Of a stretch of 18,074 bases of DNA, positions 120 to 18,074 are shown one piece after another (positions within the stretch are counted from its first letter, which is position 1; every line of letters starts with the position of its first letter). The stretch covers positions 1 to 18,074 of IMG/VR virus record IMGVR_UViG_3300045988_020153, one strand, 5' to 3'. The notes beneath the pieces were generated by a model. That model saw only the letters and a list, made by a program, of their open reading frames with translations. It was not told the origin of the DNA and ran no database searches. The translations under genes and the position numbers were made by a program. The DNA is from a virus.

Positions 120-122
120 AAT
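114..122 (+). promoter_or_regulatory. Left-end early promoter, extended -10 box TGTTATAAT
   Basis: TGnTATAAT straddles the ITR boundary, about 34 nt upstream of the ATG at 156. No convincing -35. The right end carries a mirror-image element. Confidence 0.6.
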
Positions 123-155
123 AAAGTATTGACCACAAGGGAAAGGAAAAATAAA

Positions 156-401: not shown

Positions 402-406
402 TAGTA

Positions 407-435
407 AAGCCCCTAGGTTATTAACCTAGGGGCTT
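407..435. terminator. Bidirectional rho-independent terminator between convergent genes
   Basis: Perfect 29-nt palindrome aagcccctaggtta-t-taacctaggggctt. It is followed by atttt on the plus strand, and its minus-strand reading is followed by tttact. It lies between the stop at 401 (+) and the stop at 452 (-). Confidence 0.85.
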
Positions 436-451
436 ATTTTATGCTGTCAAT

Positions 452-1105: not shown

Positions 1106-1106
1106 G

Positions 1107-1478
1107 TTAGTTTTCCTTCCTGTGTTTTGGGGTATTGTTTTGCGCGAATACACTCATAAACGGTGCGTCCGCCAGCTCGGGGTTGATGGCGGTGATGTTT
1201 TCCAGGATTGAGGTGAGTTCGATTAGGCTGATGCCGCCTACGGTGCATACGAATACGCTGACTGGAAGTCCCAGGTCAACGTGGAGATTGATCATATCTA
1301 TGAAATAGGCTACCAGGGTTAGCATGAGGTAGGCGAACTTGTGCCATAATCCTTGTCGCATTTTTTGTGAACTCAACGTGTTGTTGAGTATGGCTTTTGC
1401 GATACCGGTGGCGTAGTCCACAATGATGAAGAAAACTACTGCGAATACACACCATATGTCCGTTGTCGTCATTGTCAT
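1107..1478 (-). CDS. Holin (Phage_holin_4_1 / toxin-secretion holin-like)
   Basis: 123 aa with hydrophobic helices (VFAVVFFIIVDYATG, FAYLMLTLVAYFI, VFVCTVGGISLIELTSILEN). The D..TG and SI.EN motifs are typical of this holin family. It sits immediately upstream of the endolysin. Confidence 0.75.
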   Translation of the reverse strand: MTMTTTDIWCVFAVVFFIIVDYATGIAKAILNNTLSSQKMRQGLWHKFAYLMLTLVAYFIDMINLHVDLGLPVSVFVCTVGGISLIELTSILENITAINPELADAPFMSVFAQNNTPKHRKEN

Positions 1479-1489
1479 TGATTGTTTCC

Positions 1490-2557: not shown

Positions 2558-2579
2558 GCCTGCAAACCTCCTGAAACCA

Positions 2580-2615
2580 GTGGAGGGCGTGCGCCATGAC
2601 TCGCACGCCCTCCAC
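2580..2615 (-). other. 14-bp GC-rich hairpin in the ATPase leader (attenuator, terminator or RNA-stabilising element)
   Basis: gtggagggcgtgcg / cgcacgccctccac with an 8-nt loop. On the minus strand it is followed by tggtttc and then the AGGAGG RBS. The U-tract is weak. Confidence 0.5.
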
Positions 2616-2674
2616 AACCTATCATCTGGCGGCCGTTCAAGGGAAAGGTCATCACATAACCACCGCCACTATCA

Positions 2675-2683
2675 AGTATACCA
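2675..2683 (-). promoter_or_regulatory. Candidate promoter TGGTATACT upstream of the ATPase gene
   Basis: Extended -10-like box on the minus strand, 5 nt after the tail-lysin stop codon (2688-2690), within a 130-bp intergenic region. Confidence 0.4.
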
Positions 2684-2687
2684 CACT

Positions 2688-3899: not shown

Positions 3900-3922
3900 G
3901 CCACCATTATAGTGGCATGGCT
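3894..3922 (-). promoter_or_regulatory. 11-bp hairpin enclosing the tail-lysin start codon
   Basis: agccatgccac (3894-3904) pairs with gtggcatggct (3912-3922) around a 7-nt loop. The 3' arm in the mRNA contains the ATG at 3897-3899. On the minus strand the loop reads TATAATG. Confidence 0.55.
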
Positions 3923-3941
3923 ATGCGTGGATTATCGGAGA

Positions 3942-5381: not shown

Positions 5382-5560
5382 TGGTTTGCTCCCTTGGTTT
5401 CACGGATGAGGGTTTCCAGTTGGTGTATGAGTCGATCGATCATCACCATTGCCCGATTATATCCGTCGCGCAGATCGGACGGGGTATCATCGGTGTAGAG
5501 AGGTAGCCCGTAGGTTGTGGTGCGCCCGTACATGTCGCGGTTTTCGTCATTTTCATTCAT
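5378..5560 (-). CDS. 60-aa protein carrying only the fibre N-terminal anchor motif (mini-paralogue of the fibre N-terminus)
   Basis: Start at the ATG at 5560 (MNENDENRDMYGRTTTYGLPLYTDDTPSDLRDGYNRAMVMID...). Stop and start overlap as ATGA at both ends (5557-5560 and 5378-5381). It shares a 17-nt identical DNA core with the fibre gene. Confidence 0.6.
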   Translation of the reverse strand: MNENDENRDMYGRTTTYGLPLYTDDTPSDLRDGYNRAMVMIDRLIHQLETLIRETKGANQ

Positions 5561-5754
5561 GATCTTCTCTTTCTCTGATGTGGATGCAGTTCCCGCAAGA
5601 GTAAAAATTTGTCCGCATCCTTTTGCACGTCGAACCCCGCTTGAGAGCATACTTCATAGAGCGCGATATTAAGCTGGGTTCTAAAGTCGCGGCCTTCGGA
5701 ATCTTTCTTCCCCTGAACGGTTATCGAGCTTATCGTTTTTTTGACATCCATCAT
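5557..5754 (-). CDS. 65-aa hypothetical protein in the appendage cluster
   Basis: ORF whose start overlaps the upstream stop as ATGA (5751-5754) and whose stop overlaps the downstream start as ATGA (5557-5560). This indicates translational coupling. Confidence 0.5.
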   Translation of the reverse strand: MMDVKKTISSITVQGKKDSEGRDFRTQLNIALYEVCSQAGFDVQKDADKFLLLRELHPHQRKRRS

Positions 5755-6377
5755 TCCCTCCCTTTTTCGTGGACAATGAAATATGTCGCTTGGGTCCCCG
5801 GTGACGTGGCTCTGTCGACTGGAATATATCCTTTTTCCGGTGATTTCGGTGGCGGTGTCGGTCGCTGATTCTGAGGTCGGGGTGTGACTCTCGGATCCGG
5901 GTTGCCGAAGATATCCTTATTACCCAACACCGCCCAAGTGATGCAATCATGCTGTGCCGCCTGAGCCGTGGTTACGGTAGCCATCTGATTAACCCGCGCG
6001 CCGAATACGGCCAATTCGCGGTATATGTCTCGATGAGTGTTTTTCGAGTCCTCGTACTTGCCACGCGTCGGATTATAGGTCAAATCGGAGTCTTCATATT
6101 GTCCGACCTGCTTTTCCAAGTCATCCAGGGTTTCATTGATGCGCTCGAACTGCCCGTTGAAACCGGCTATCAGCTGCTTGATGGCTTCAACGTCCGCGTT
6201 CTCATCCTGGGCGAGATTGTCGAGCTGTTCCCTGAGTTGGTCGAGATGCTCGGCCACCTCCTGCACGTATCCGAGCACGGTAAGCGTGTCCCGGTATGAA
6301 AACGGCTGAACCGTGGTGAAATAGCGTTGCCGCGGGTCAATATCGAGCGGTGCGGCGCATAGGTTAATACCGTCCAT
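5751..6377 (-). CDS. Coiled-coil structural protein (neck/tail appendage candidate) with a Pro-rich C-terminus
   Basis: Start set to the ATG at 6377, directly after AGGAGG (6381-6386); the track start at 6401 is a TTG with no SD. Heptad-like acidic region LDQLREQLDNLAQDENADVEAIKQL. C-terminal RVTPRPQNQRPTPPPKSPE. Confidence 0.55.
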   Translation of the reverse strand: MDGINLCAAPLDIDPRQRYFTTVQPFSYRDTLTVLGYVQEVAEHLDQLREQLDNLAQDENADVEAIKQLIAGFNGQFERINETLDDLEKQVGQYEDSDLTYNPTRGKYEDSKNTHRDIYRELAVFGARVNQMATVTTAQAAQHDCITWAVLGNKDIFGNPDPRVTPRPQNQRPTPPPKSPEKGYIPVDRATSPGTQATYFIVHEKGRE

Positions 6378-6408
6378 AATCCTCCTAACTGTCAATGTCA
6401 AGTATACT

Positions 6409-7221
6409 CTAGTGACCGAGATTGTAGGCGAGTGACGTGGAATACAGTTGTGGCACGTTGGTCATATTGTCACCACTCCCCCACATGCCGAGGAAAAGGT
6501 TTTCGAGCGAGTTGATGACCATCATGTCGATGTTGAGCATGGTGTTACGCCAATCCTGCAAGAGCTGGGACTGGGATCCGCTGGTTCCCAGGGTATGCGA
6601 GGTGGAATTGCCCTTGTCGGAGGAATGTGCGTAATCCGTGTTGCTCGTGCTGGTTGCGGTGGCCGTGCTGTCCTGCTGTGTGCTTGTATGCGTGTTGCCT
6701 ATCGAGTCCGTTTGTGATGCGGTTGTGGCGTACTTGCGAAAATCGTCAATGCGAGTCTGCGGAAACTCGCTGTTGAACGTCATGCTGGAGTTGTCGGCGG
6801 TGGTGTCGGACGTGCTGTTGGCACTGGACTCGTTCGACTGTGTGCCGCTCGATTTGCCGCTGGACTCGTTCGTGCTCGTCGAGTCCATAGTCTGTTTAAT
6901 ATCCGACGTAATAAAGGGGTCGAACTTGCGCTGGGCGGACAGATAGAGTTGGTTGAAATAGTCCATCTGCTCCCGCATGGTACGCCCCAAATAAAATATG
7001 AACATTTGCGGGGTTTCGCTTCCTATTTCCCTGAGCGCGTAGTGGGCTACGATTTTCTCGTTGAGTTTCGCCCTATAGTTTTCGTCGAAAATCGGGTAAT
7101 ATTGAGCGCTCAAATGCAGTTTTTCGTCCGTATCGAAACCGCGTGCGATCAGATTGCCAAGCGTCAACGTGTAATCCGCCATGCTGTCTTTGATGGCGTA
7201 CATGCTCAAGTCCTGCACCAT
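6409..7221 (-). CDS. Lower collar protein (phi29 gp11-type)
   Basis: The N-terminal YYPIFDENYRAKLNEKIVAHYALREIGSETPQMF...MDYFNQLY matches the conserved lower-collar signature of phi29/44AHJD-like phages (from memory). It carries a long Ser/Thr-rich insert. It lies immediately downstream of the portal gene. Confidence 0.7.
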   Translation of the reverse strand: MVQDLSMYAIKDSMADYTLTLGNLIARGFDTDEKLHLSAQYYPIFDENYRAKLNEKIVAHYALREIGSETPQMFIFYLGRTMREQMDYFNQLYLSAQRKFDPFITSDIKQTMDSTSTNESSGKSSGTQSNESSANSTSDTTADNSSMTFNSEFPQTRIDDFRKYATTASQTDSIGNTHTSTQQDSTATATSTSNTDYAHSSDKGNSTSHTLGTSGSQSQLLQDWRNTMLNIDMMVINSLENLFLGMWGSGDNMTNVPQLYSTSLAYNLGH

Positions 7222-7223
7222 AT

Positions 7224-8162
7224 TTATTCCTCTTCCTTGTTTCCGTCAACGTCCAGGAGCCCGCCTGAAGTGGTGTCGTTCCATTCGATGCCGATTGGTT
7301 TCCCGGAGTCGGCCATTTGCGGCCACAGTCGGTTGATCGTGTCGCACGCCTGCTGACGCGCCTTCAAGTAGCTCAGGCGGAATACGTTCGTACGACTGTT
7401 TCCAGCCGTGACTTCCGACTCAAGCAACCTTTCTTTCTTCTCGGTGGTTGAATTGTCGATACCAAGATAGTTCACGAGTTCGTTCCAGATCTGCGTTTTC
7501 GTCGTGATGATCTTATCCGCCAAAAACGGGGTGACGTTGGGGAAGGTCTGGAACATGCCGGTAATGTCCGCCGAGTCGTACGTATAAATGTACGGGTCTC
7601 CGTCTTCCCTCGCTTTCATCAGGTTTTGGGCGGTGAGTTTGTTGGTTTCTGAAGTGGCGATGATCAACGGCACCGAAATGTTGTCGAGGTTGACGTCAAG
7701 CGCACGGTCGGCAATCGCCAATCGTGTGGCGTAATTCCACATGACATCGATCATGGTGCAACGAAGTTGGTTGTCCCAAATGGGCACGCATTCCTTCGAC
7801 CCTATTTGCGGGTGCGAGTAGTTCGTGGCTACGGGCTGAAAAAGCGTAGGATTATTATAGTTGTTGACTCCGCCGATATTGCCGGACGTGACCATGAAAC
7901 GGTGTACACCCTTGCGTTTGTCGGGGAAAAAGAGCGCCAAACCGTTCTCGAATAGGGTCAGTTCCAAATATCTTTCATCAATGTACGGGGGTAGGTTCAC
8001 CCATTTGAAACGCGACACCGCCAACATTTCAATCAATTTCATGTACTGGTTAATGCGCAATGATTGCCGCATTTCAGGTAGGTTCAAATTGCCCCACATT
8101 GAACCTAATACGCTCTGGTTGTCCCAGTGCGCGGCCTTGCGCGCGTTATTACGTTTGCCCAT
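7224..8162 (-). CDS. Portal / upper collar connector (phi29 gp10-type)
   Basis: Start at the ATG at 8162 (MGKRNNARK...). FKWVNLPPYIDERYLE compares with phi29 FEWENLPPTINPSFLE, and EKKERLLESEV with EKKERMVTDEV. The N-terminus is basic, as in gp10. Confidence 0.88.
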   Translation of the reverse strand: MGKRNNARKAAHWDNQSVLGSMWGNLNLPEMRQSLRINQYMKLIEMLAVSRFKWVNLPPYIDERYLELTLFENGLALFFPDKRKGVHRFMVTSGNIGGVNNYNNPTLFQPVATNYSHPQIGSKECVPIWDNQLRCTMIDVMWNYATRLAIADRALDVNLDNISVPLIIATSETNKLTAQNLMKAREDGDPYIYTYDSADITGMFQTFPNVTPFLADKIITTKTQIWNELVNYLGIDNSTTEKKERLLESEVTAGNSRTNVFRLSYLKARQQACDTINRLWPQMADSGKPIGIEWNDTTSGGLLDVDGNKEEE

Positions 8163-8174
8163 AATTACCGTCCT

Positions 8175-8212
8175 AAAAAACAATGGAGAGAGCTTATTAC
8201 GCTCTCTCCATT
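8175..8212 (-). terminator. Rho-independent terminator between the tail-knob and portal genes
   Basis: 12-bp stem aatggagagagc / gctctctccatt with a 7-nt loop. On the minus strand it is followed by gtttttta. It is probably leaky, because the portal gene follows 13 nt later. Confidence 0.7.
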
Positions 8213-8216
8213 ATAT

Positions 8217-10457
8217 CTAGTATGCGATACCGGCCAGCGGCACGTTGTCCGCATAATCGGTGACGCCGATCTTGTCGGGGTCAGTCCATACGGTCACGCC
8301 CGACTCAAAAATGCCCTTGACCGTCAATCGGTACTCTTCTGGGCACGTGCTCGAACGTATGTACAATTCGTGCAGTTTCCAGTAGGTGAAATTGCTCATG
8401 GCCATAAGGTTTGTCGGAAGTTTCATAAACCTTTGCACGTAATACCCGTAGCGCAACCACACTTCGCCAATGGATCGCATGGCGGCGGGCGATATCTGCC
8501 GGAAACGTACCATGACACCAATCAGGCCGTTAGCCAAATTAAAAGCGTCACCGCCCAATGCGCCGGACGTGGTTGGCGGTACGGTTTGCGTCTGTTGTAC
8601 CTGGGCGTTGATGCCGGCGATCGTGTTCTCGTAATCGCCTTGCGCCGTCGCCTGAGCCAACTGTTTGTTCATATCTGCGAGCTGCATTGTCTGCTGATTG
8701 GACAGATTGGTTTGCGCGAGGCTGTAGGCGTTGGCCTGTGACGTTGAAGCGTTGTTGGTGGTTTGCGTGTTCGCCAATTGCTGGTTCGCGCTTGACACGT
8801 TGTTGTCGTAAGTCATTTGGTTTGTCCACGCGCCGATTGCGGTGCCTGCGATGGCTCCGGCCACACCGCCAATATCGCCCGTGACTGCGGAACCGACCGC
8901 GTTGGCCACACCCGATCCGATGGTGTTGATTTGCGCCATCTGATTGTTGAAGCCGAGGTTTTTCAGCGTCAAGTCGGTACTCATTTGCGCGCTCTGGTTG
9001 CTGATGGCGTTCATGGCGTTGCGGTTCGACGTGCCGAGCCGGTTTTGGGCGCTTGCATATTGCGTGCCGAGTTGGGCTTGAGCGTAGGCGTTGTTGATGC
9101 CCATTTGAGTTTTCTGGAAACCCCAGTCCGCGCTTTGTTGGGCGTATTGGCGCGTGTACGCGCTGTTCGCAAGAGCGAGAGCTGACCCGTTGTTGACGGT
9201 CATGAAGGTGGGGAAATTGGTCATGCCGAAGGACGCGTTGAGCATTTCGCCCGTATCGATAGGCAGTCCCTTACCGTCTGTTAGTGGTTGACGTTCGCCC
9301 AGGTTTCCGGCATGGTAGCCGCGCGCGTAAAAGTTCAGACGGGGCGACGGTGGCGCGTAATTCCATGATTCTCGAATAATCAGGTCAGCGCTTGGAATCT
9401 GTTCCGGCTCGTATGTGATCACGGTGCCGTTCAGGCACGAGCATTCGATATAGGCATATGGCGCTGTGAGGAACTTTTTCAGATACTTGTAGCGTTCCGG
9501 CACCTGGAAAGCATCGCGGAAGTTTTTGAGATTGATGATGTCCGTGTAGCGGGCGTTGCTATTGTCGTTACGCTTGCGCAATTCCCAGCAATTGCCGACG
9601 AAACCGACCGAGTGGCCGAAAAGTTCCGTTTTCTTGGGCTGTCCGTCCAACAACGCTTGCGGCAGATGTGGTACGGCGTAGATGCCGCAAATTCCCTGAG
9701 TGACCCACGGTGCGCTCATGCCTTCGGTGAAGAATGCGACAATATCGGTGGGCGTATCCAAATAGTACATGGATGTGCCATTAAACTGACTTTCGAACGC
9801 GCTACCCGTGGCGGTGTTGACCACCGGGTTAACCTTGGTGCCCGTATCGGCGTCCAGATCGGTGGTGCTTACGATGATCAGCCCGTAGGATGTATATTTC
9901 ACGCCATCGTGAGTGCCAATATCCATGAGCGGTTTCCATGACTCATTCGTGAGTACGGTGCATTTGCCGGTATCCAAGCCCTCCGGTAGGTCGAGATACG
10001 TTTTGCCGTAGTCTTTCCAGGCGTTCTCGTTCGCGATCCCCACATGGCCGCGTTCGACGTAGGCGTTACCCAATGTAATATCGTGTTGGAAGCTCTGCCA
10101 CACGTCAAGCTGGATGTTTAACTGTGTGGTGTTGGCGTTGATATAGTCGCATGTCTGGATGAAATAATACCAACTACGGGGGGTGTCAAAATCGTAATCG
10201 TTCGTGGCGATCAGATAATTATATTGGCATGCTTGGGCGAACGGCACGGGCAGTCGTACCGGCAGTCCGTATTTCGCCATGGTGCAGTTTGTGAACTCGA
10301 TGCCGTCCAGCTGGTTGAAATACTCTTGCTGAGCCGGTCTGTCCCATTTTACGATATCCCTGTAGCCCATGTCCCACGGGACGTTGCAGAGTTTGAACCG
10401 TGTGTTTGGCGTCCATTTCGCGTAGCTGAAGTTTATAGGCAAGTCGTTTGCGCTCAT
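8217..10457 (-). CDS. Tail knob / distal tube protein (phi29 gp9-type) with a large Q/N/A-rich insertion
   Basis: The N-terminal third parallels phi29 gp9. TRFKLCNVPWDMGYRDIVKW compares with VRILADVPFSNDYKNTRWF. WYYFIQTCDYINANTTQLNIQLDVWQSF...YVERGHV compares with [31 protein letters not shown]...IVREHV. AGGAGGG RBS at 10462-10468. Confidence 0.8.
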   Translation of the reverse strand: MSANDLPINFSYAKWTPNTRFKLCNVPWDMGYRDIVKWDRPAQQEYFNQLDGIEFTNCTMAKYGLPVRLPVPFAQACQYNYLIATNDYDFDTPRSWYYFIQTCDYINANTTQLNIQLDVWQSFQHDITLGNAYVERGHVGIANENAWKDYGKTYLDLPEGLDTGKCTVLTNESWKPLMDIGTHDGVKYTSYGLIIVSTTDLDADTGTKVNPVVNTATGSAFESQFNGTSMYYLDTPTDIVAFFTEGMSAPWVTQGICGIYAVPHLPQALLDGQPKKTELFGHSVGFVGNCWELRKRNDNSNARYTDIINLKNFRDAFQVPERYKYLKKFLTAPYAYIECSCLNGTVITYEPEQIPSADLIIRESWNYAPPSPRLNFYARGYHAGNLGERQPLTDGKGLPIDTGEMLNASFGMTNFPTFMTVNNGSALALANSAYTRQYAQQSADWGFQKTQMGINNAYAQAQLGTQYASAQNRLGTSNRNAMNAISNQSAQMSTDLTLKNLGFNNQMAQINTIGSGVANAVGSAVTGDIGGVAGAIAGTAIGAWTNQMTYDNNVSSANQQLANTQTTNNASTSQANAYSLAQTNLSNQQTMQLADMNKQLAQATAQGDYENTIAGINAQVQQTQTVPPTTSGALGGDAFNLANGLIGVMVRFRQISPAAMRSIGEVWLRYGYYVQRFMKLPTNLMAMSNFTYWKLHELYIRSSTCPEEYRLTVKGIFESGVTVWTDPDKIGVTDYADNVPLAGIAY

Positions 10458-10465
10458 AAAACCCT

Positions 10466-10506
10466 CCTAAAAATAATAGGTGTGAATAAAGTCTATCCAC
10501 ACCTAT
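10466..10506 (-). terminator. Terminator/attenuator after the capsid gene
   Basis: 9-bp stem ataggtgtg / cacacctat (10476-10484 and 10498-10506) with a 13-nt loop. On the minus strand it is followed by tattttta and then the RBS of the next gene. Confidence 0.6.
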
Positions 10507-10527
10507 CTTAGCGGCTGGTTATCATCG

Positions 10528-12243
10528 CTATGCGGTGACGGTGACCTTTGCCGTTCCGACAGCTCCCGCAAACTTCACGGTGACGTTGGCGGTGCCCGCT
10601 GTGGTTCCGGTCAGCACTCCATTGGGGGTGATGGTCGCGTGGGCGTCCACCGTCCACGTGGCGAGATTGGTCACGTCTGCGGTGTTGCCGTCCGTCTTGG
10701 TGGCGATCGCCTTAAGAGCCACATTGCCGTTCACTTTGACCGACTTTTCGCCCTGGATCTCGACGGACTCGATGGCTCCGGCCTTCCAGCCGCCAAGCCA
10801 AGTGCCGACGACCGGCACGGATAGCGCGGCGGAAACGGTCTGGTCGATTTCGGGCGTTGCCGGATCGATGTAGGTGGCCTGGGCGGTGACTTTAAGCGTT
10901 TCGGCGGTTTCATCCAAACCGCAACGAAGGATACCGTCGTTATCAATGGTGGTGAACTGAGAGGTTGCGCCCTCGACCGCGTACTTGATGCCGGTTGGCT
11001 GGAATGTCGCCGTTTCCTTGTTGGCGCTGGTAATGACGGACTCGACTTGCACCAAGTCGCCACGGGACACGTTTTCCGGAGTGATGGCGGACTGTCCATA
11101 CTTGCGCACGCGCAAGGTAAACTCGGGCTTCGAGGTGGTGAGTGTGTCCGGCAACGTCACGGACTCGTTGGAGCCTTTGCCCGTCCAGAACAGGATCGCG
11201 TTCGCGAACGGGTTCGGAGTGATGCTACCCCTGTGCTTGTAGAAGATATTGCGCGTGCCGTCAATCGGGTTCACGGGGGAGTTCGTCGTTTCCAACATTT
11301 CATCCCAGCAGAAGAAAAAGTCCTCCGTGGTGAGCACGGCCTGTACCTTGCCGCCCTGTCCGCCGATACCGAACATATCCTCCGGAATCGGGATAATACG
11401 GTACGGGACGTTAACCTTGTCAATGTTGAACGCGGCGGCCAATGCTTCCACGTTGAGAGCGGCGATAACCTGCGGAGTGGCGAACAAGATCGCTTCACTA
11501 TCTCGCCACGGAGTCACCCAACTCATGGCATTATACCGTGGCATGGCGCTCATTGGCGACGCCTTCAGCTCGTTCGCCATCTGCTGAATAAGGCGCAGTA
11601 GTCCCTTCGCGTCCGCTTCAGTCGAGTCGGCCTTACCAACGTCCGGGGTATGCACTCGATAGAACCCACCCTTACGAGCGTATTCCGCGAAGGTCTGCGT
11701 CTTCATGAGATACATGTCATTGCGGTCGGACAAGATCGGCGCGTTCATGATCTCAGCGATATAATCCGACATGCCACTTTCGCCGTCGAACGCGGTCAAC
11801 AAGGCGTCTTCAGGGATAGTGACGGGGTAATAATGATCGAACGTGAGCGGGTGGAATACGGACGCGGTCGGGAGACTGTAGTGCCCGTAAACGTCGTCGC
11901 CCAAATATTCCTTATTGAAGTTGCGAGTGCGTGCCTTGACGAGACCAACTGCGGCCTGCTCGTAAGTGGAGCCGTAGCGCTTGAGCGTGCGCGGGGAGCC
12001 GATCAGCTTCAGCTGGTCATCCCAATCAGCGTGCTGGATATAGAGCCCAATGAGACGCTGGATCAGCACGCCGGTGAACTCGTCACGAAGGTAGGGGAAG
12101 TTGCGCATGGTGTCCACGGCGTTCCTAATATTGCCCTGCGTGGCGCTCGGAATGCGTGTCTGGAACTGCGGGGACGTGGCGTTGCGGACGGCGTTGAAGA
12201 TCTCAACGTCACCCTTGCCGGCCAATGGTCGAATATTGGACAT
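10528..12243 (-). CDS. Major capsid protein with C-terminal Ig-like (Big_2-type) domain(s)
   Basis: 571 aa, directly after the scaffold gene, as for phi29 gp7-gp8. The C-terminal ~90 aa (IESVEIQGEKSVKVNGNVALKAIATKTDGNTADVTNLATWTVD...GVLTGTTAGTANVTVKFAG...AKVTVTA) is a textbook Big_2 pattern. A second Ig-like segment lies upstream of it. Confidence 0.8.
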   Translation of the reverse strand: MSNIRPLAGKGDVEIFNAVRNATSPQFQTRIPSATQGNIRNAVDTMRNFPYLRDEFTGVLIQRLIGLYIQHADWDDQLKLIGSPRTLKRYGSTYEQAAVGLVKARTRNFNKEYLGDDVYGHYSLPTASVFHPLTFDHYYPVTIPEDALLTAFDGESGMSDYIAEIMNAPILSDRNDMYLMKTQTFAEYARKGGFYRVHTPDVGKADSTEADAKGLLRLIQQMANELKASPMSAMPRYNAMSWVTPWRDSEAILFATPQVIAALNVEALAAAFNIDKVNVPYRIIPIPEDMFGIGGQGGKVQAVLTTEDFFFCWDEMLETTNSPVNPIDGTRNIFYKHRGSITPNPFANAILFWTGKGSNESVTLPDTLTTSKPEFTLRVRKYGQSAITPENVSRGDLVQVESVITSANKETATFQPTGIKYAVEGATSQFTTIDNDGILRCGLDETAETLKVTAQATYIDPATPEIDQTVSAALSVPVVGTWLGGWKAGAIESVEIQGEKSVKVNGNVALKAIATKTDGNTADVTNLATWTVDAHATITPNGVLTGTTAGTANVTVKFAGAVGTAKVTVTA

Positions 12244-12261
12244 TACTTATACCTTTCTGTT

Positions 12262-12549
12262 TTAGTCGAACAAATCTTCGATGGACTCGGTGCTGTCATT
12301 GTCTCCGTTGCCGTCATTGTCGGACGGTGCGGGGTCGGTGTAGCCGAGCGTGTCCAGCATGGCCTTCAGTCCGGCCAATTCCTTTTCAATCGCGTCAAGT
12401 CGAGCGGAAACGTCCGGCTCCTGTTTCAGATCCGGTTCCGGCTCGGGTTCTTTCGGCTTGACTTCATCGTCTACGGTTTCGGTCTGCCGTTCCTCTTCGG
12501 TCGGCGGCGGAGTGGTGTTTTCCTCGCCGTCATTGTCTGGGTCTGCCAT
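12262..12549 (-). CDS. Scaffolding protein candidate (phi29 gp7 analogue)
   Basis: 95 aa, very acidic and Pro/Glu-rich, with a central helical LDAIEKELAGLKAMLD segment. It is the first gene of the late operon, immediately upstream of the capsid gene, and has an AGGAG RBS. Confidence 0.6.
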   Translation of the reverse strand: MADPDNDGEENTTPPPTEEERQTETVDDEVKPKEPEPEPDLKQEPDVSARLDAIEKELAGLKAMLDTLGYTDPAPSDNDGNGDNDSTESIEDLFD

Positions 12550-12584
12550 ACAAACTCCTAACGATTGGCAATGTTTCCGCTAAA

Positions 12585-12593
12585 ATTATATCA
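12585..12593 (-). promoter_or_regulatory. Late-operon promoter, extended -10 TGATATAAT, no recognisable -35
   Basis: Exact TGnTATAAT on the minus strand, about 36 nt upstream of the scaffold ATG (12549) and just downstream of the terminator at 12612-12633. It is bracketed by the inverted repeat tttccgc (12574-12580) / gcggaaa (12598-12604). Confidence 0.65.
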
Positions 12594-12599
12594 TGTGGC

Positions 12600-12633
12600 G
12601 GAAAATAAAATGACCCCGCAATCACGCGGGGTC
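12600..12633 (-). terminator. Rho-independent terminator ending the early/replication transcript and the candidate ncRNA
   Basis: 8-bp GC stem gaccccgc / gcggggtc with a 6-nt loop. On the minus strand it is followed by attttattttcc. Confidence 0.85.
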
Positions 12634-12771
12634 GAAACGTCCCATGTGAGCGCGAGTTGAAGATCGTAGGGCACTACCGCCACGATAGTGATTTTCACGG
12701 GTCGGCGGCATTCTCAGCCGTGGCAGTCCGACTCATGTCGCTCCCAGTCGAAAATCGACGCTCAGGAAGAC
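12600..12771 (-). ncRNA. Candidate ~170-nt non-coding RNA (pRNA-like packaging RNA candidate)
   Basis: 217-bp ORF-free gap between pol and the late operon. Its own TGCTATAAT box lies at 12778-12786, predicting a TSS near 12771. Transcript nt 3-12 pair with nt 119-131 (10 bp with a 3-nt bulge). Hairpins sit at 12747-12759 (loop AUUUU) and 12688-12698 (loop AAAAU). A terminator hairpin at 12612-12633 is followed by a U-tract. Confidence 0.5.
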
Positions 12772-12777
12772 ATGATC

Positions 12778-12786
12778 ATTATAGCA
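12778..12786 (-). promoter_or_regulatory. Promoter TGCTATAAT overlapping the polymerase stop codon
   Basis: Exact TGnTATAAT on the minus strand. The TAA stop of pol (12779-12781) lies inside the -10 hexamer. Confidence 0.55.
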
Positions 12787-14230
12787 TGACCATTGTGCCG
12801 TAATCATCCATGACTTGCACGCCATGTCTAAACTTCTCGTAGGGGATGGGCTGGGAGAACATGTTCCCGGCCATGCATACGTCAACCTCTCCGTCGTCCC
12901 TCCATCCCTGATACCGGTTCATACCCAGGATAGTCAACTTCTCATATCGTGCGGCGATCTTCCATTTCCCAAGTTCGGTCGGGTGTATGTCGCATGATTT
13001 CACCGGATCCCAACCGCTCAGGATGCAACCGTCCGTGTTCGCATACAATAGTCGATCGGCGTTCGCGTGGCACACGTCCATAAGCTTGCGGCGTGCGTAG
13101 GCGTTGACCCATACGGGCACGGGCAGATAGTCGGTTTTCAGGTTCGATTCTTCGCGCTGGGCGACATCCCAGTCCAATGTTATGCCGTCTTTGGAGGTGG
13201 GGAGCATGACGTTGCCCTTGGGCAGACTCGCCATTTTGCCTACGAGAGCGTTCATGATCAGTTTCGCCATCTGCCGTTTCTCGCCCGTCGTCCGTTGTTT
13301 CAAGTCACCCCATTCATCCACGAACGAGCGGAAATAGCCTTTTGAGCGGCGGAACTTCCACCCTCGAACATGCTGGTATATAGTCACTTCGTAATTGTCG
13401 TACAGTAGTTGCTGGTCAATGTCGGTCAATACTCTTGTGATATAGCCACGAGTGGAAGTGAGCCGGTTGAGTCCGTATATACTGCGATTATCAAGTAGAA
13501 ATGGGTAGCCGTTTGGTTTGAGTTCCGCACGAAACGTGAGTTCGTCACAATGCAATGGCATAGCATCATCTTGGACATATTTGCCGTCGTACGGTTCCGG
13601 TTCACCCCACGGCAACCACTCGTCCCGTAATATGGACGGATACATGCTATTGCAGTCAACGTCAATAGCCTTGCCATACGCCCCCTCCCTGACTAACATG
13701 AAACCGCCGATATAGGCGTCATGCAATGACTTTTTCGTATCCGATTCGAGTTGCGGGAATTTGTCATAAAACCATTTCCACTCGCCGGACGCAAAAGCCT
13801 CCATACTCGCCCCGCCCGCAGTGATCTTGCACAAGTTGCGATTATCATACTCACGCAGAATATTGAGTAGTTGCGTGCCGGTCATGGTGATACGGCAGTT
13901 CTCACGCAAAAGATTCGATATATCGAAAAATCGTGCGGAATTTTCACGGTCGATACGCACGCTAAAGCTGAAAAATTTGCCTTTTTTCGAGATGATGGCG
14001 TCCCAGCTCAGATTAGCATTGTGTTCGTTGTGGGGCAATGAGTGTACGACGTGCGCAATAAACGGATCTAAAGTGTCTGGGTCAGTCACATATATAGTGA
14101 GTTTGCCGCCCGTCATTATGTACTCCAAAAGGCAGTTAGGCGCGGTGACGTCACGCAAGACGGTTCCGTCCGTGAATCGTATGACGTTATCCGCGCACCA
14201 CAACCCCACTCTTTTATCTTGCCTGGTCAT
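12779..14230 (-). CDS. Protein-primed family-B DNA polymerase (phi29 gp2-type), 483 aa
   Basis: Motif A is IDVDCNSMYPS. LPWGEPEPYDGKYVQDDAMPLH compares with phi29 LPYGEPIVFEGKYVWDEDYPLH (TPR1 region). Motif B is KLIMNALVGKMAS. A TPR2-like insertion is present. Motif C is LLYANTDGC. LGKWKIAARYEKL compares with LGYWAHESTFKRA. The exonuclease motifs are degenerate (see findings). Confidence 0.95.
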   Translation of the reverse strand: MTRQDKRVGLWCADNVIRFTDGTVLRDVTAPNCLLEYIMTGGKLTIYVTDPDTLDPFIAHVVHSLPHNEHNANLSWDAIISKKGKFFSFSVRIDRENSARFFDISNLLRENCRITMTGTQLLNILREYDNRNLCKITAGGASMEAFASGEWKWFYDKFPQLESDTKKSLHDAYIGGFMLVREGAYGKAIDVDCNSMYPSILRDEWLPWGEPEPYDGKYVQDDAMPLHCDELTFRAELKPNGYPFLLDNRSIYGLNRLTSTRGYITRVLTDIDQQLLYDNYEVTIYQHVRGWKFRRSKGYFRSFVDEWGDLKQRTTGEKRQMAKLIMNALVGKMASLPKGNVMLPTSKDGITLDWDVAQREESNLKTDYLPVPVWVNAYARRKLMDVCHANADRLLYANTDGCILSGWDPVKSCDIHPTELGKWKIAARYEKLTILGMNRYQGWRDDGEVDVCMAGNMFSQPIPYEKFRHGVQVMDDYGTMVML

Positions 14231-14257
14231 GGTACAACTTTCTTTGATTGACTGCCG

Positions 14258-15220
14258 CTACTTTTCCAATGCGCCCGCTTCCATCATCCATCGGTCGAAC
14301 TGCCGTCGCGAACGCTGATAGCCCTCGCTGTTGTCACGGAACACTGAAGTAAAACCGTGGCGCACTGGGTCATATACCGTCCAGTCGAACACGATACGGG
14401 GGGCGTCAGTCTGTTCGATGAACGCGCGTTTTTGTGCGGCTGAGAGTTGGCGGAATCGTTTCAACCGTTTCGAGCCGAGCGTGGTAGCCAAGATCTTCTC
14501 GAACACCTCATAACGTTCGCGGCTCATATAGGAAGGCCAATCATGATCACCATACAATTCTTTAGTCTGTTTGCCTGTTCCCTGCTTTTTGGACGGTTTG
14601 CTTTTTCGTTCGGTGCGCAATCCCAATATTTCTGCGGCATCGTGCATCTGATCCAGTAGTTCGTTGCGATGGCCGCTTTCCAGTTGGGAGCGCACGAAAG
14701 CTTCATCGCTCAGCACGTCGGTCATTTGCAGGAAGTCCGTGAGTTTCGATGGGATGATCTGATTACGTCCGAAGCCTTCACCGGTGGTGCCGGTGATCTC
14801 GGCCACACGCTGATCATACACGCTACGTTGTGGCATGGCCTGAGCTTTGTTCCATTCGTTGATTTTCCGTCGTGCCGCATTGATTTTCCGCTGTTGCTGT
14901 CGCAAGAGTTTACGTCGCTTCGCCACCGGCTCCGCCTGAATTTGCGCGTCTGTGATGGGTGTGCGCCCTGCGAACATGATGTCTTTTTTCGTCGGCTTTT
15001 CGATGGCGGTGGTGTGGTATGGGGTTGCTTTCGCTTCCGCTATGGCATGTTTCTTCTGCCGTTCCCACTCTTTGCCTAATGTTTTCGCGATGTTGACTAG
15101 TTGTTGGTCTGCGGTTTTGGCGAGATTGGAATAGGAGTAACTGCCAAGTTGTTTGATATTACGGGCGGCGCGTGCTTGCGCGGCTTGACGTGCCTTGACA
15201 TGCTTTTGCTTTCGAGACAT
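14258..15220 (-). CDS. Terminal protein candidate (primer for protein-primed replication)
   Basis: 320 aa and strongly basic (KQKHVKARQAAQARAAR, KRRKLLRQQQRKINAARRKIN). It lies immediately upstream of PolB, like phi29 gene 3. The C-terminal FRDNSEGY (Ser298) resembles the phi29 TP priming context FDSEG as I remember it. No other similarity is visible by eye. Confidence 0.55.
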   Translation of the reverse strand: MSRKQKHVKARQAAQARAARNIKQLGSYSYSNLAKTADQQLVNIAKTLGKEWERQKKHAIAEAKATPYHTTAIEKPTKKDIMFAGRTPITDAQIQAEPVAKRRKLLRQQQRKINAARRKINEWNKAQAMPQRSVYDQRVAEITGTTGEGFGRNQIIPSKLTDFLQMTDVLSDEAFVRSQLESGHRNELLDQMHDAAEILGLRTERKSKPSKKQGTGKQTKELYGDHDWPSYMSRERYEVFEKILATTLGSKRLKRFRQLSAAQKRAFIEQTDAPRIVFDWTVYDPVRHGFTSVFRDNSEGYQRSRRQFDRWMMEAGALEK

Positions 15221-15242
15221 ATGGCACAGTCCTTAAGATGGC

Positions 15243-15267
15243 GAGAGCACCCAAGTTGGGTGCTCTC
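15243..15267 (-). other. Hairpin without a U-tract between the SSB-like and TP genes
   Basis: gagagcaccc (15243-15252) pairs with gggtgctctc (15258-15267) around a 5-nt loop. The flanks are not T-rich on either strand. Confidence 0.5.
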
Positions 15268-15301
15268 TATGGATGAACGCTACTCAGTTATTATAGCAAG
15301 C

Positions 15302-15736
15302 TCACTTGGTTTCCTTGTCCACCGGCTCGATGCTGAAAAACTTGAAGCCACGACGGGAGCGGCGTTCGACAACCTTGATGCATAGCGGTTCCGTCCAGGT
15401 GTTCGGCGTGCCGAAGATCCCGAACATGGTGTTGAGTCCCGCCGCGAGAGTGGGGGAGGTGGCCGCGTACGCCTTGTTGTCATCGGTCACGATGACGACG
15501 CGCACGGTGTTGGAGATTTCGCCGGTCTGGTCGTCGGTCACCTGCACGGCCTGGGCTACTGCGTTCGTCATGTTCAGCGGCTCGTTGAGGTGTTCGTCGA
15601 GCTTTTCGGCGTTCTGCAATGCGCTGTAGAGCTTGATCTTGCCTTCACGAGTGCTTGTGTCGATGAAGTGTTGGACGGTGCCAAGTTCGGTGTTCTCGGT
15701 GTTGAACGCGACGAGTGCGGTATTGGTGTTTTCCAT
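15302..15736 (-). CDS. Single-stranded DNA-binding protein (phi29 p5-like)
   Basis: It begins MENTN, as phi29 p5 does. NAVAQAVQVTDDQTGE...AYAATSPTLAAGL...IKVVERRSRRGFKFFSIE parallels p5 NAIAQYKQVSDTYGD...LYSAISKTVAEAA...VKVVQGTSSKGNVFFSLQ (from memory). AGGAAAGG RBS. Position upstream of TP and pol. Confidence 0.6.
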   Translation of the reverse strand: MENTNTALVAFNTENTELGTVQHFIDTSTREGKIKLYSALQNAEKLDEHLNEPLNMTNAVAQAVQVTDDQTGEISNTVRVVIVTDDNKAYAATSPTLAAGLNTMFGIFGTPNTWTEPLCIKVVERRSRRGFKFFSIEPVDKETK

Positions 15737-15792
15737 TGGTTAACCTTTCCTAGATTGTTGTTATTTTATTTTCAGGCTTATGCCTAAAATCT

Positions 15793-15801
15793 TTTATATC
15801 A
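15793..15801 (-). promoter_or_regulatory. Candidate promoter TGATATAAA upstream of the SSB-like gene
   Basis: Extended -10-like box on the minus strand. Its TGA is the stop codon of the upstream gene. It lies about 57 nt upstream of the ATG at 15736. Confidence 0.4.
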
Positions 15802-16116
15802 CACGTCTTCGTTATTTTTAACGTCGGCGTGTCTTTTGTTTGTATGTTCTTCGGGGTTCCATTCTTGAGGTTCCTCAAAAGTCGCATACTTATAAAAAGT
15901 CTCCTCATTCATTGAGACCTTTTGCGAAAAAATGTTGATAGAACGTGGAATGAAATCCGGAAACAGTTTCTTCGCACGAATCGAATACGCGCGTGCGTCT
16001 TTCAAACGTCCGTCGATAACATGCTCCGCTTCCAGGAAGTCACCATCCACTAATTCCATGCCCTTAAGCACGGCATAGACGCGCGTGCGAAAAATTTCGG
16101 TTTTCATTCGTGCCAT
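15799..16116 (-). CDS. Histone-like dsDNA-binding protein candidate (phi29 p6-like)
   Basis: 105 aa against about 104 aa for p6. MARMKTEIFRTRVYAVLKGMELVDGD compares with p6 MAKMMQREITKTTVNVAKMVMVDGE. EETFYKYATF compares with VEKFLEVATV. The C-terminal tail is acidic. All comparisons are from memory of the p6 sequence. It is the first gene downstream of the consensus promoter. Confidence 0.5.
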   Translation of the reverse strand: MARMKTEIFRTRVYAVLKGMELVDGDFLEAEHVIDGRLKDARAYSIRAKKLFPDFIPRSINIFSQKVSMNEETFYKYATFEEPQEWNPEEHTNKRHADVKNNEDV

Positions 16117-16131
16117 GAGATTCTACCTTTC

Positions 16132-16641
16132 CTATTCAAAGATTTTTTGCAATTCTACGTCATTATATCGTGTCATGTCCAGTCTGTCAAAATTTTTAAA
16201 CACGGCAATAATCAGTTTTTCCGCTTGAGGACTATCAAAAACCGTGCAACAGTCATATGACGTGCCGCCCTTGACGGCACAGACCGCGCACCATGCAATC
16301 AAATTAGGCGGATTGATGGAACCGTCCAAATATTCAACGTCGGACGTGCGGGATAGGGCGGCAGAGAGTCCGTCCCACATAGTCAGACTCCCGCATATCC
16401 GAGATACAGTAACCACCGCTTGCGTAAACCACTCACCAGGCGCTTCACGCCACAACTCACACAACATATTGACGGCGCGACAACATGTTTCAAAATCGCC
16501 ATATCCAACGTCATACCGTTCCAGATTCAGCTCGCAGGTACGCCCCCGCGTAGCCCTGACAATACGCGGCGACTCCATGATGGCATCATCAAAATCACGC
16601 ATACGATAGATCGGAGTCCTATCATCACCACGCCTAAACAT
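16132..16641 (-). CDS. 169-aa early protein of unknown function (Cys/Trp-rich)
   Basis: Start chosen at the ATG at 16641, 7 nt after GAGGAG. An alternative ATG at 16743 (GAGG + 6 nt) would add 34 Arg-rich residues. No recognisable motif. Confidence 0.6.
   Translation of the reverse strand: MFRRGDDRTPIYRMRDFDDAIMESPRIVRATRGRTCELNLERYDVGYGDFETCCRAVNMLCELWREAPGEWFTQAVVTVSRICGSLTMWDGLSAALSRTSDVEYLDGSINPPNLIAWCAVCAVKGGTSYDCCTVFDSPQAEKLIIAVFKNFDRLDMTRYNDVELQKIFE
16162..16190 (-). promoter_or_regulatory. Perfect consensus sigma-A/sigma-70 promoter TTGACA-N17-TATAAT (strong early promoter)
   Basis: The minus strand reads tttaaaaatTTGACAgactggacatgacacgaTATAATgacg. The -35 is at 16185-16190, the -10 at 16162-16167, and the spacer is exactly 17 nt. 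An A/T-rich UP-like tract lies at 16191-16200. The promoter sits about 45 nt upstream of the ATG at 16116. Confidence 0.8.
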
Positions 16642-16812
16642 AGTACCGCTCCTCAACGCGAAAATAACCGATATTCTCCGTATGAGACCGGATAGCCGCC
16701 CACCGTTTAACCAAATCCGCCGCATCCTTGTATGAGGACGCATAACCGACCTCGATAGGCGGCTTGCGCGCATCCCTCAAGTATGCAAGAGCCACGAAAA
16801 TACTATACATGT

Positions 16813-17016
16813 CTAAAACTCCAATTCATCAACAAAATCACTATCACCATACAGCCACATGACCGCCCACAACCGCCGATCAGGGCAACGTTTCGGAGGA
16901 TCAGTAGCGCTCCGCTTATGCCGTCTCCCAGCCCAAAACGCGCGCAAACGCCAATAACTATCAGCGTCCGGGCACGTGCCGCACGCCCACGAATGTACCC
17001 AACCGCGAAAATACAT
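16813..17016 (-). CDS. 67-aa early protein of unknown function (Trp/Arg-rich)
   Basis: ATG at 17016 preceded by the GAGGAG RBS. It forms a tight junction with the upstream gene. Confidence 0.55.
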   Translation of the reverse strand: MYFRGWVHSWACGTCPDADSYWRLRAFWAGRRHKRSATDPPKRCPDRRLWAVMWLYGDSDFVDELEF

Positions 17017-17019
17017 GTT

Positions 17020-17265
17020 TTAACTCCTCTCTATTAAGGGCGTGCGGGCAATATCGATAGCGTCAACAAGCACGTCCGCCACCTGGTTATAGTCGGTAGC
17101 ACTATACGACGCCACCCCCACAGCCGAACACAATCCCTCCGGCGAGTGAAACACCACATCATACTTCAGCCTATACGACTGACTATGAGAGCAATACCAC
17201 AATTCCACATCACCGCCACAATGTTGAGACGGAAACACAGCAACCTTCATATCACAATAACGCAT
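17020..17265 (-). CDS. 81-aa early protein of unknown function
   Basis: The ORF is in line with its neighbours. The start is uncertain: the ATG at 17265 has a weak SD, and the ATG at 17250 is an alternative. Confidence 0.45.
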   Translation of the reverse strand: MRYCDMKVAVFPSQHCGGDVELWYCSHSQSYRLKYDVVFHSPEGLCSAVGVASYSATDYNQVADVLVDAIDIARTPLIERS

Positions 17266-17281
17266 GACCAGAGATCTTTCA

Positions 17282-17437
17282 CTACAAAACCAATACGATA
17301 GACACGCACACAATCAGCATGACCAGAAAACACATTGCGTCACGCATATCACGCGGTGCCTCAGAAAACACTTCAGCACCCGCAGCAATCAGCAGGATCG
17401 CAAACAAGACAACAACAATAACCACATCAATCATCAT
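17282..17437 (-). CDS. 51-aa small membrane protein with two predicted TM helices
   Basis: MMIDVVIVVVLFAILLIAAGA...MCFLVMLIVCVSIVLVL. The start ATGATGA overlaps the stop of the upstream gene (17427-17437), suggesting translational coupling. Confidence 0.5.
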   Translation of the reverse strand: MMIDVVIVVVLFAILLIAAGAEVFSEAPRDMRDAMCFLVMLIVCVSIVLVL

Positions 17438-17675
17438 AACACCACGGTCCACTGTTAAAAGCCCTACTAAGCTCTTGAAAATCAATGCCACGACAGTATG
17501 CAATTCCGTCGTCTACGTCGATAAACTCCATAAGAGATACCCAACGGCCACGGTCTAGATCAAATATTGCAAACCGGTAATCCACACCACAGTAGTCGCA
17601 TGGATGCTCACACCACCGAAAACGACGGTCTAACCCCGTGTACGTGTCAACAACAGTAAAATAATGCCATTCCAT
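17427..17675 (-). CDS. 82-aa early protein of unknown function with a Cys/His cluster
   Basis: ATG at 17675, 6 nt after GGAGG (17682-17686). It contains WCEHPCDYCG, a possible small metal-binding knuckle. Confidence 0.6.
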   Translation of the reverse strand: MEWHYFTVVDTYTGLDRRFRWCEHPCDYCGVDYRFAIFDLDRGRWVSLMEFIDVDDGIAYCRGIDFQELSRAFNSGPWCYDD

Positions 17676-17689
17676 GATTTGACCTCCAA

Positions 17690-17920
17690 TCAAACGAGCG
17701 AAACCTTAACCATGCCAACCATCGTACCGTCAAGATCAAACGTGGCATTATCAATATCCACACCCACATTACGCCCAACATAAGCGCTACGAACATAAGA
17801 CAACACGCCATCCAACGACGCTTTCAACGACGCTGTATGAAACATGCCACTAGGCTTCACACAGTCAGACAAAACCTCAAAAACCTGAAAACCATCATCA
17901 GCAATAATGAAATACCACAT
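17690..17920 (-). CDS. 76-aa immediate-early protein of unknown function (first gene from the right end)
   Basis: ATG at 17920 preceded by caagggaaaggaaataaa. This is nearly the same RBS cassette as the left-end gene. Confidence 0.65.
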   Translation of the reverse strand: MWYFIIADDGFQVFEVLSDCVKPSGMFHTASLKASLDGVLSYVRSAYVGRNVGVDIDNATFDLDGTMVGMVKVSLV

Positions 17921-17947
17921 TTTATTTCCTTTCCCTTGAAGTTGATA

Positions 17948-17956
17948 GTTATATCA
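17948..17956 (-). promoter_or_regulatory. Right-end early promoter, extended -10-like TGATATAAC
   Basis: On the minus strand at the ITR boundary. An overlapping alternative, TGTTATGAT, lies 5 nt upstream. It is about 28 nt upstream of the ATG at 17920 and mirrors the left-end promoter. Confidence 0.5.
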
Positions 17957-18074
17957 TAACACAAACAAACAAACGACACGCCCAAAAACAAAACAAAACA
18001 AAAAAAATAAAAGACAGTCACAAAACGGTCAGCAAATAAGCTACGGTTACGTAACCGTAACTTAGCTAAGCATG
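17956..18074. repeat. Right inverted terminal repeat (ITR-R), 119 bp
   Basis: Exact reverse complement of 1-119, carrying the same palindromes and A-rich mirror of the T-rich repeats. Confidence 0.97.

Follow-up and report, generated by a model that had tools for sequence, protein, structure and literature searches.

A small RNA gene between the polymerase and scaffold-like genes

The 18,074-nt stretch of DNA analyzed here (IMG/VR virus record IMGVR_UViG_3300045988_020153, positions 1 to 18,074; hereafter the window) is a phi29-like Bifidobacterium phage, and nearly all of its long open reading frames (ORFs) are carried by the minus strand. One of these is the gene of the B-family DNA polymerase (pol; 12779-14230, minus; assigned by PHROG profile), and the spacer that separates it from a scaffold-like gene is the subject of this study, together with the structured RNA that it appears to encode. 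An original prediction, made from the letters of the window, had seen at this place a transcription unit resembling the packaging (prohead) RNA, or pRNA, of phage phi29. As for the gap itself, which had been given as 217 bp, the part free of long ORFs measures 229 nt (12550-12778). No tRNA or tmRNA gene was found by ARAGORN in the whole window.

The signals of the putative RNA gene lie on the minus strand. An extended -10 promoter, TGCTATAAT (12778-12786), covers the last codons of pol and its stop codon, TAA 12781-12779, and the transcription start predicted from it is G12771, which is nt 1 in the numbering used below. At the other end there is an intrinsic terminator (12602-12633), whose stem (12633-12612) has 9 pairs, 7 of them G-C, and is followed by UUUUAUUUU, with the U tract at 12610-12602. 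If started at G12771, the whole predicted RNA (12603-12771) would be ~169 nt long: 133 nt of domain I (12771-12639) and, after a linker of 5 nt, the separate 3' domain formed by the terminator. In all these respects, the -10 box over the pol stop, the terminator set apart from the rest and an RNA of ~170 nt, the original prediction was right. Judging from these signals, the promoter and terminator are probably in use.

Directly after the terminator comes a second extended -10 box, TGATATAAT (12585-12593, minus), presumed to be the promoter of the late operon; the scaffold-like gene starts downstream of it, at 12549. The TATAAT hexamer of this box is invariant in a six-sequence alignment, in which the form of phage BD811P1 is TGGTATAAT.

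Conservation of the spacer

Relatives were collected by a pol scan of IMG/VR, which returned 80 at 75-93% protein identity; five GenBank records brought the number to 85. The spacer element is found in 85/85 of them, with 74-94% DNA identity. Further copies were sought with a degenerate pattern derived from the invariant motifs, and 49 were added, the labelled contigs being almost all from human-gut metagenomes and many of them ~18 kb long; one metagenome match to the pattern (L123) was dropped as an unrelated sequence. The original prediction had held that such a spacer ought to be kept among relatives, and it is present in 134/134 related genomes and contigs, as 99 distinct sequences. The closest records are the Bifidobacterium phages BP1 and BD811P1-3 and a human faecal contig, all with 75-85% DNA identity over the region.

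Mean column pairwise identity is 0.848 for the RNA domain and 0.955 for the TGCTATAAT box (85 relatives), and identity at third codon positions is 0.60 in pol, 0.69 in the scaffold gene and 0.66 in the capsid gene. Since the RNA domain exceeds the flanking third codon positions, the spacer is under purifying selection, and a coding role is ruled out by the frequent single-base indels at several places. The GenBank records of these phages that were examined carry no annotation between pol and the scaffold gene, and the paper describing BP1 makes no mention of a pRNA (PMC12694917). No report of the spacer RNA element of these Bifidobacterium phages was found in the literature.

A conserved and covarying secondary structure

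Folded alone, 12771-12600 reaches -65.9 kcal/mol (z = -2.68 against dinucleotide shuffles, 2/200 of which equal it). In this single-sequence minimum free energy (MFE) structure the 5' end is closed on nt ~119-133 and the terminator stands apart as its own domain, which is the outcome expected from the original prediction. The same structure pairs GAUUUUC with GAAAAUC inside one molecule, a pairing that is not conserved. A consensus was obtained with RNAalifold on 77 distinct sequences and then refined by eye and with mutual information. The RNAalifold consensus differs from the MFE structure of the window, and the consensus fold on the window sequence has -31.1 kcal/mol versus -45.6 for the MFE. 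The refined consensus was the basis of a covariance model, R1, which recovers all family members at 103-153 bits and was used to align the 99 distinct sequences.

On this alignment, from which the pairing percentages and the numbers of double changes below are taken, the 43-pair structure is 98.3% pairable, with two-sided changes in 18 of the 43 pairs (115 cells). Among 500 column shuffles, not one equals the observed value on any of five measures, and pairing falls to only 33-47% when the 3' partners are slid by 1-3 columns. An alignment made with MAFFT alone gives the same picture. Compensatory changes are seen in five elements: the two closing helices P0 and P1, a C-like helix, a 4-bp hairpin and a 7-bp hairpin.

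P0 is formed by GUCUU (nt 1-5, 12767-12771) and GGGAC (nt 129-133, 12639-12643; RRGAC in the family); all coordinates of structural elements are on the minus strand. It is 99% paired and has 3 pairs with double changes, for example at 2/132 (UA 76, CG 1) and 4/130 (UG 42, UA 28, CG 5). An internal loop separates it from P1, in which GAGCGU (nt 9-14, 12758-12763) pairs with GCGCUC (nt 119-124, 12648-12653). P1 is 100% paired, and its G13-C120 pair becomes A-U in 9 sequences. After the 3' strand of P1 follows ACAU (nt 125-128), as a 3'-side bulge or part of an internal loop.

Beyond P1 the RNA carries a near-invariant stretch, GAUUUUCGAC (nt 16-25, 12747-12756), opposite CGAUCUUC (nt 106-113, 12666-12659), whose family form is CGAUYUUC. 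It is predicted either to fold back locally into a hairpin or to serve as 5' strand where the closing helix continues irregularly, and none of these pairing options shows double changes. The base of a three-way junction is P2, the invariant GGG/CCC (nt 27-29 with nt 101-103, 12743-12745 with 12671-12669). Because P2 and the GAUUUUC region never vary, their pairing has the standing of a prediction.

Two arms leave the junction. The first begins with the C-like helix (nt 35-44 with 67-76, 12728-12737 with 12705-12696), from which G38 is bulged and in which 7/9 pairs show double changes, such as U-A to C-G and C-G to U-A. It continues, across a 7-nt bulge on the 5' side only, the CE-like bulge ACUGCCA (nt 45-51, 12721-12727), into the E-like hairpin CGGC-UGAGAAU-GCCG (nt 52-66, 12706-12720), whose 4 bp are 99.7% paired with double changes in one pair. 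The second arm, reached by a variable linker of 3-7 nt, is the D-like hairpin CACUAUC-GUGGC-GGUAGUG (nt 82-100, 12672-12690), with 7 bp that are 99.9% paired and double changes in 5/7 pairs; it abuts P2, with a linker of 0 nt. The linker between the closing helix and the terminator varies from 5 to 8 nt, and the terminator stem covaries independently (CCCCGCG/CGCGGGG to CCCUCCG/CGGAGGG).

Correlated G-U to A-C switches occur at three places in the family: in the E-like loop at nt 59/62 (G..U in 54 and A..C in 22 sequences, UGAGAAU to UGAAAAC, scattered over clades), at nt 7 with 125/126 (12765/12647-12646) and at nt 15 with 114 (12757/12658). They suggest non-canonical or tertiary contacts. 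Conserved G-U pairs such as U14-G119 would be A-C on the opposite strand, which identifies the minus-strand transcript as the selected molecule. Considered together, these data make it close to certain that the element is a real, independently selected, structured RNA.

The structural details of the original prediction fared unevenly. The closure of the 5' end on the 3' end, which relatives were expected to bear out, is kept by compensatory changes in both P0 and P1. The register proposed for it, UUCC/GGGA, needs a C that most relatives lack, and GUCUU/RRGAC plus GAGCGU/GCGCUC are conserved instead. Two hairpins with complementary loops, at 12759-12747 and 12698-12688, are literally in the sequence and do not last as a conserved pair. 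The first (gucg-AUUUU-cgac) stays pairable in its part UCG-AUUUU-CGA, through one-sided changes only, and competes with the cross-strand pairing, and G13, which had been assigned to it, covaries with C120 of the closing helix. In the second (gug-AAAAU-cac) the G of gug and the C of cac are unpaired in 34/77 relatives, and its AAAAU stretch is a variable linker between the arms, which reads AACAU, AAUAU or GGAAU in relatives or is shortened. The proposed AUUUU/AAAAU loop pairing has to be given up: for the predicted structure as a whole (closing helix, both hairpins and loop pairing, on 77 sequences), 240/500 shuffles reach the percentage paired, and the conserved loop pair is another one, GCCA/UGGC.

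Why would so much structure be maintained behind a polymerase gene? One answer is that the pol mRNA simply has a structured 3' end here, which would act as a stability or insulator element and stop early transcription ahead of the late promoter. The terminator does stand directly before that promoter, and the putative promoter of the RNA overlaps coding sequence, so that coding may explain part of its conservation. However, the TGCTATAAT box is far above the 0.60 of the neighbouring third codon positions, and its layout over the stop codon is kept at 33% pol identity (see below). The first base of the closing helix, moreover, is the very start site that the -10 box predicts, and a terminator alone would suffice for such a role, yet 133 nt of covarying upstream structure and loops are kept. 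For these reasons, we regard a pol 3' end as very improbable.

Another answer is a riboswitch-like attenuator, or a DNA-level regulatory region with protein sites as in phi29. The order of promoter, structured leader, terminator and genes is what an attenuator would have, but the late genes possess their own near-invariant promoter past the terminator, and no riboswitch family was matched in Rfam scans of the whole window and of 12590-12790. The terminator stem shares no bases with the 3' strand of the closing helix and covaries alone, so that there is no evident antiterminator fold. Against a role of the DNA stands the covariation that preserves G-U pairs, which is strand-specific and belongs to the RNA level. 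This explanation is scarcely credible.

Complementarity between a bulge and a hairpin loop

The last four bases of the CE-like bulge, GCCA (nt 48-51, 12724-12721), are complementary to UGGC in the D-like loop (nt 90-93, 12682-12679). Over the 99 sequences the outermost pair, G48-C93, is GC in 85, GU in 9 and AU in 5, with no mismatch; C49-G92 is CG in 99/99; C50-G91 is CG in 93 and UG in 6; and A51-U90 is AU in 88, GU in 2 and something else in 9. A48 occurs solely opposite U, in at least three lineages, the clades BD811P2/L103, L079/L093/L140 and L095/L104, while G-U intermediates of pair 48/93 are present in other lineages and the fourth pair of L095 is G-U. Pair 48/93 is also more consistent than the alternative G89-C93, which would close a 3-nt loop and has three A-C mismatches. 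The duplex GCCAC/GUGGC (5 bp) is worth -8.7 kcal/mol, against -3.7 for the loop pair of phi29. The support from covariation for a loop-loop pairing is, from the sequences, real but modest.

An alternative loop pair, AUUUUC with the GAGAAU loop, was also considered and rejected by inspection, as the variants GAUUCUC and GAAAAC co-occur inconsistently.

Comparison with the phi29 packaging RNA

To our knowledge, no RNA other than the pRNA is known to be part of a viral DNA-packaging motor, and the molecule has also become a workhorse of RNA nanotechnology. On the basis of its architecture and of its genomic context, the spacer RNA probably serves this phage lineage as its prohead (packaging) RNA.

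The likeness runs through the whole molecule; the sizes given for phi29 pRNA are those of the consensus structure of Rfam RF00044. Both RNAs are ~170 nt long, with an end-closed domain of 120-133 nt and a separate 3' domain made of a linker and a terminator hairpin, and in both the order around the three-way junction is A, C, bulge, E, D, A. The C helix has 5+4 bp in phi29 pRNA and 3+6 bp in the Bifidobacterium RNA, in each case with a 1-nt 5' bulge; the 5'-side bulge that follows has 9 and 7 nt, respectively. The E helix is of 4 bp in both, with a 6-nt loop (UUGAGU) in phi29 and a 7-nt loop (UGAGAAU) here, UGAG being common to the two. The 3' side of the C/E arm is contiguous in both RNAs and takes part in thirteen pairs in phi29 pRNA. 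The D hairpin has 6 bp in phi29 and 7 bp here, with a 5-nt loop in each, and the D-to-A linker is 0 nt in both.

The loops agree in register as well: GCCA/UGGC occupies the place of AACC/GGUU in phi29, that is, the 3'-terminal four bases of the bulge and of the D loop. The complementary tetranucleotides of phi29 are known to be A45-ACC-48 and G82-GUU-85, and the phi29 sequence was checked at these positions. Four features by which a pRNA could be recognized are found here together: an end-closed domain plus a terminator domain, the C-bulge-E-D order at the junction, complementary loops that covary (at one pair only) and the gene context.

With regard to this context, the RNA gene lies downstream of the terminal protein and polymerase genes (TP-pol), on the same strand, in both phages, and the extended -10 box TGCTATAAT is identical in the phi29 A1 promoter (L143 328-356). 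This identity, like the common UGAG, may be a coincidence of consensus sequences. Unlike in phi29, the RNA gene here stands mid-genome, with the early operon on one side and the late operon on the other, a result of all genes being on one strand. Other differences are the host (an actinobacterium here, Bacillus for phi29), the G+C content (58% versus 41% in phi29 pRNA) and the way in which the A-like helix is interrupted, here by a 3'-strand bulge and a conserved GAUUUUC/GAUYUUC region.

The two presumed protein partners of the RNA are also encoded in the window, as had been predicted. The gp16-type packaging ATPase (1490-2617 as ORF, 1490-2557 for the 355-aa protein, minus; PHROG 2150, E = 1e-59) is 28% identical to phi29 gp16 (E = 3e-42), with residues 1-319 of 332 aligned; this span presumably takes in the C-terminal domain, which in phi29 is the one that binds pRNA. 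The gp10-type upper collar or portal protein (7224-8183 as ORF, 7224-8162 for the protein considered here, minus; PHROG 2038, E = 2e-54) is 26% identical to phi29 gp10, and its N-terminus, MGKRNNARK, aligns with MARKRSNTYR. The basic N-terminus pointed out in the original prediction is thus there and compatible with a pRNA, and it is not discriminating, because the portals of phages BadAargau2, Av-1 and Cp-1 start basic too.

If the spacer RNA is a pRNA, how would it work? In the mechanism that we envisage, a small stable non-coding RNA would be made from its own extended -10 promoter and ended at the intrinsic terminator. Its first 133 nt fold into a long irregular closing helix leading to a three-way junction with the C/E-like arm and the D-like hairpin. 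The GCCA bulge of one molecule would pair with the UGGC loop of the next, so that a ring forms at the prohead's portal vertex, in which the C/E-like arm would touch portal and capsid and the closing helix, with its conserved irregularities, would dock the gp16-type ATPase. The loop pairing would then take place between molecules, and the RNA would bind proheads and be needed for packaging.

A number of points weigh against a packaging RNA. A scan with the Rfam pRNA model (RF00044), which had been proposed as a check, gave no match at E <= 10 in the whole window or in 12590-12790 (201 nt); the gathering threshold of this model is 100 bits, and phi29 as a positive control scored 145.4 bits. In the other direction, R1 with filters off gives phi29 pRNA only 5.9 bits and detects nothing significant in Cp-1, Av-1 and BadAargau2. 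With no profile similarity either way, homology is supported by neither sequence nor profile, and the likeness is one of architecture only. The architecture is not matched everywhere. In phi29, the docking of gp16 needs a three-base bulge, CCA, in the 5' strand of the A helix (PMC3479190). It has no equivalent here, where the irregularity is ACAU/UGAU on the 3' strand, with correlated non-Watson-Crick changes, and the junction linkers are of 5 and ~5 nt, as opposed to 1 and 3 in phi29 pRNA. As for the loops, their covariation amounts to one pair and ~3 independent events, the fourth pair (A-U) is mismatched in 9/99 sequences, and an intramolecular pseudoknot would explain the GCCA/UGGC pairing equally well.

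This last point leads to a different function altogether. The element might be a structured small RNA with some other job, such as an early-to-late regulator, a protein sponge or an anti-host RNA, in which GCCA and UGGC form a pseudoknot in cis that locks the arms, and its likeness to pRNA would then be convergent or coincidental. Structure and conservation show a functional RNA and not which function it has, and the absence of profile similarity to pRNA suits this explanation. So does a place between the early and late operons, which is apt for a regulator. Placed 9 bp up one arm and 7 bp up the other, the bulge and the loop could plausibly meet in cis, and the conserved unpaired GAUUUUCGAC, UGAGAAU and the G-U/A-C switches could be contacts with any ligand or protein. 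On the other hand, many features of the pRNA consensus match together, including the register of the complementary loops, and the genome is that of a phi29-type phage with an ATPase of the pRNA-dependent type. Moreover, Rfam offers no other family to which the RNA might belong: at E <= 10, nothing credible was matched in the whole window or the 201-nt region, the weak suhB and isrO matches being to the terminator. We consider a different job rather unlikely.

The reading of the spacer RNA as a packaging RNA accordingly keeps the core of the original prediction, a pRNA-like unit with a conserved, covarying fold and a pRNA-like layout, and drops two details of its structural argument. A separate matter is descent. 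That the RNA is a true homologue of phi29 pRNA, diverged beyond sequence recognition, is a serious possibility that falls a little short of the probable.

Other candidate packaging RNAs

The original prediction considered pRNAs to be established only for the Bacillus relatives of phi29, and two reviews do describe them as peculiar to this group (PMC5066667, PMC11476376), to which putative cases outside it must be added. One was proposed for Streptococcus phage Cp-1, as mentioned in a study of phage Goe4, which by covariance model found pRNAs in Bacillus phages only and did not reliably find that of Cp-1 (PMC6266182). Another is in the record of Actinomyces phage Av-1 (NC_009643, L088), which has a misc_RNA "packaging RNA" at 16295-16402, over ORFs B and C; it was matched by neither Rfam nor R1. 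Cp-1 and Av-1 are, like the phage of the window, phi29-like phages of hosts other than Bacillus, and Av-1 likewise infects an actinobacterium. Their pRNAs are single-sequence predictions, whereas the Bifidobacterium RNA comes from a comparison of 99 distinct sequences.

In Av-1, a promoter, a short RNA and a strong terminator were also noticed at 4471-4600, between ORF7 and ORF8 and before the late genes.

A related arrangement is seen in BadAargau2 (L087 13100-13237, minus) and BadAztec1 (L089 2740-2869), which have a 179-nt spacer between pol and a scaffold-like gene. As in the window, TGCTATAAT or TGCTATAGT lies over the pol stop, at 33% pol identity, and the closing helix, GUGAGCG/CGCUCAC, is almost identical to CUGAGCG/CGCUCA of the window. 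Between the two phages there is covariation in a second helix (GGCGG/CCGCC to GACAG/CUGUU; n = 2 distinct sequences), and the spacer also has a strong 3' hairpin and, twice, the quasi-palindromic GGUGCC. Its interior is unrelated in sequence to that of the window and is not detected by R1. An IMG/VR scan with the BadAargau2 pol for more sequences of this type gave that phage alone.

In two further phi29-like phages of actinobacteria the RNA was looked for after pol only: in Curtobacterium phage Reje this space is filled by a small gene and promoters, and in Eggerthella phage LE1-1 there is no gap after pol. In L090 (MT835826), at 3760-3900, the promoter TTGACA-17-TGTACAAT was observed after pol; it precedes a leader of ~100 nt whose 5' end, GGGGCAGUAUAU, is complementary to AUAUAUGCCCC around the ATG of the next ORF.

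If the spacer RNA is a pRNA, the RNA part of the motor is probably not confined to Bacillus phages. A second, sequence-unrelated pRNA family would show an RNA-dependent motor to be a widespread and probably ancient design, and would supply independent data on the features that are essential in a pRNA: three-way junction geometry, loop register and UGAG are kept, and the CCA bulge is not. It would also become possible to test, in the culturable phages BP1, which grows on B. pseudocatenulatum U19, and BD811P1-3, which grow on B. dentium DA811, whether gp16-type ATPases need an RNA adaptor. Were the RNA a true homologue, an RNA ring would already have been part of the motor in the common ancestor of the phi29-like phages of Firmicutes and Actinobacteria. 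Further small protein-primed podophages could then be expected to have similar undetected pRNAs, of which the BadAztec-type spacer RNA would be one example, and the G-C-rich loop pairing of 4-5 bp would represent a naturally hyperstable pRNA ring.

Genome context and other features of the window

The window has a G+C content of 52% and ends in exact inverted terminal repeats of 119 bp (1-119 and 17956-18074), which indicate that its 18,074 nt are a complete linear genome of the protein-primed type. Beyond the close relatives, the next polymerases are those of honeybee Bifidobacterium phages, 33% identical, followed by phi29-like phages of Actinomyces, Curtobacterium, Clostridium and Bacillus. 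PHROG profiles also assigned the single-stranded DNA-binding protein (SSB; 15302-15736), the major head protein (10528-12243), a tail protein (8217-10457) and the lower collar protein (6409-7221).

Near one end of the genome, at 396-440 (plus), there is a strong hairpin, GCCCCTAGGTTATTAACCTAGGGGC, with a T run, placed after the sole sizeable plus-strand ORF (54-401) and facing the end of the minus-strand late operon; weak Rfam matches to trpB and NsiR1 are to this same hairpin. A weak match to RAGATH-21 at 16978-17048 (minus; 22.5 bits, where the gathering score is 70.3; E = 4) shares the stretch CCCUUAAUAGA and is probably due to chance. Finally, the minus-strand proteins 452-1153 and 2688-3899 share the N-terminal motif DMDGAYG(G/A)QCWDLW. 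One is probably an endolysin and the other a tail-associated lysin, with a related N-terminal domain, possibly a peptidase.

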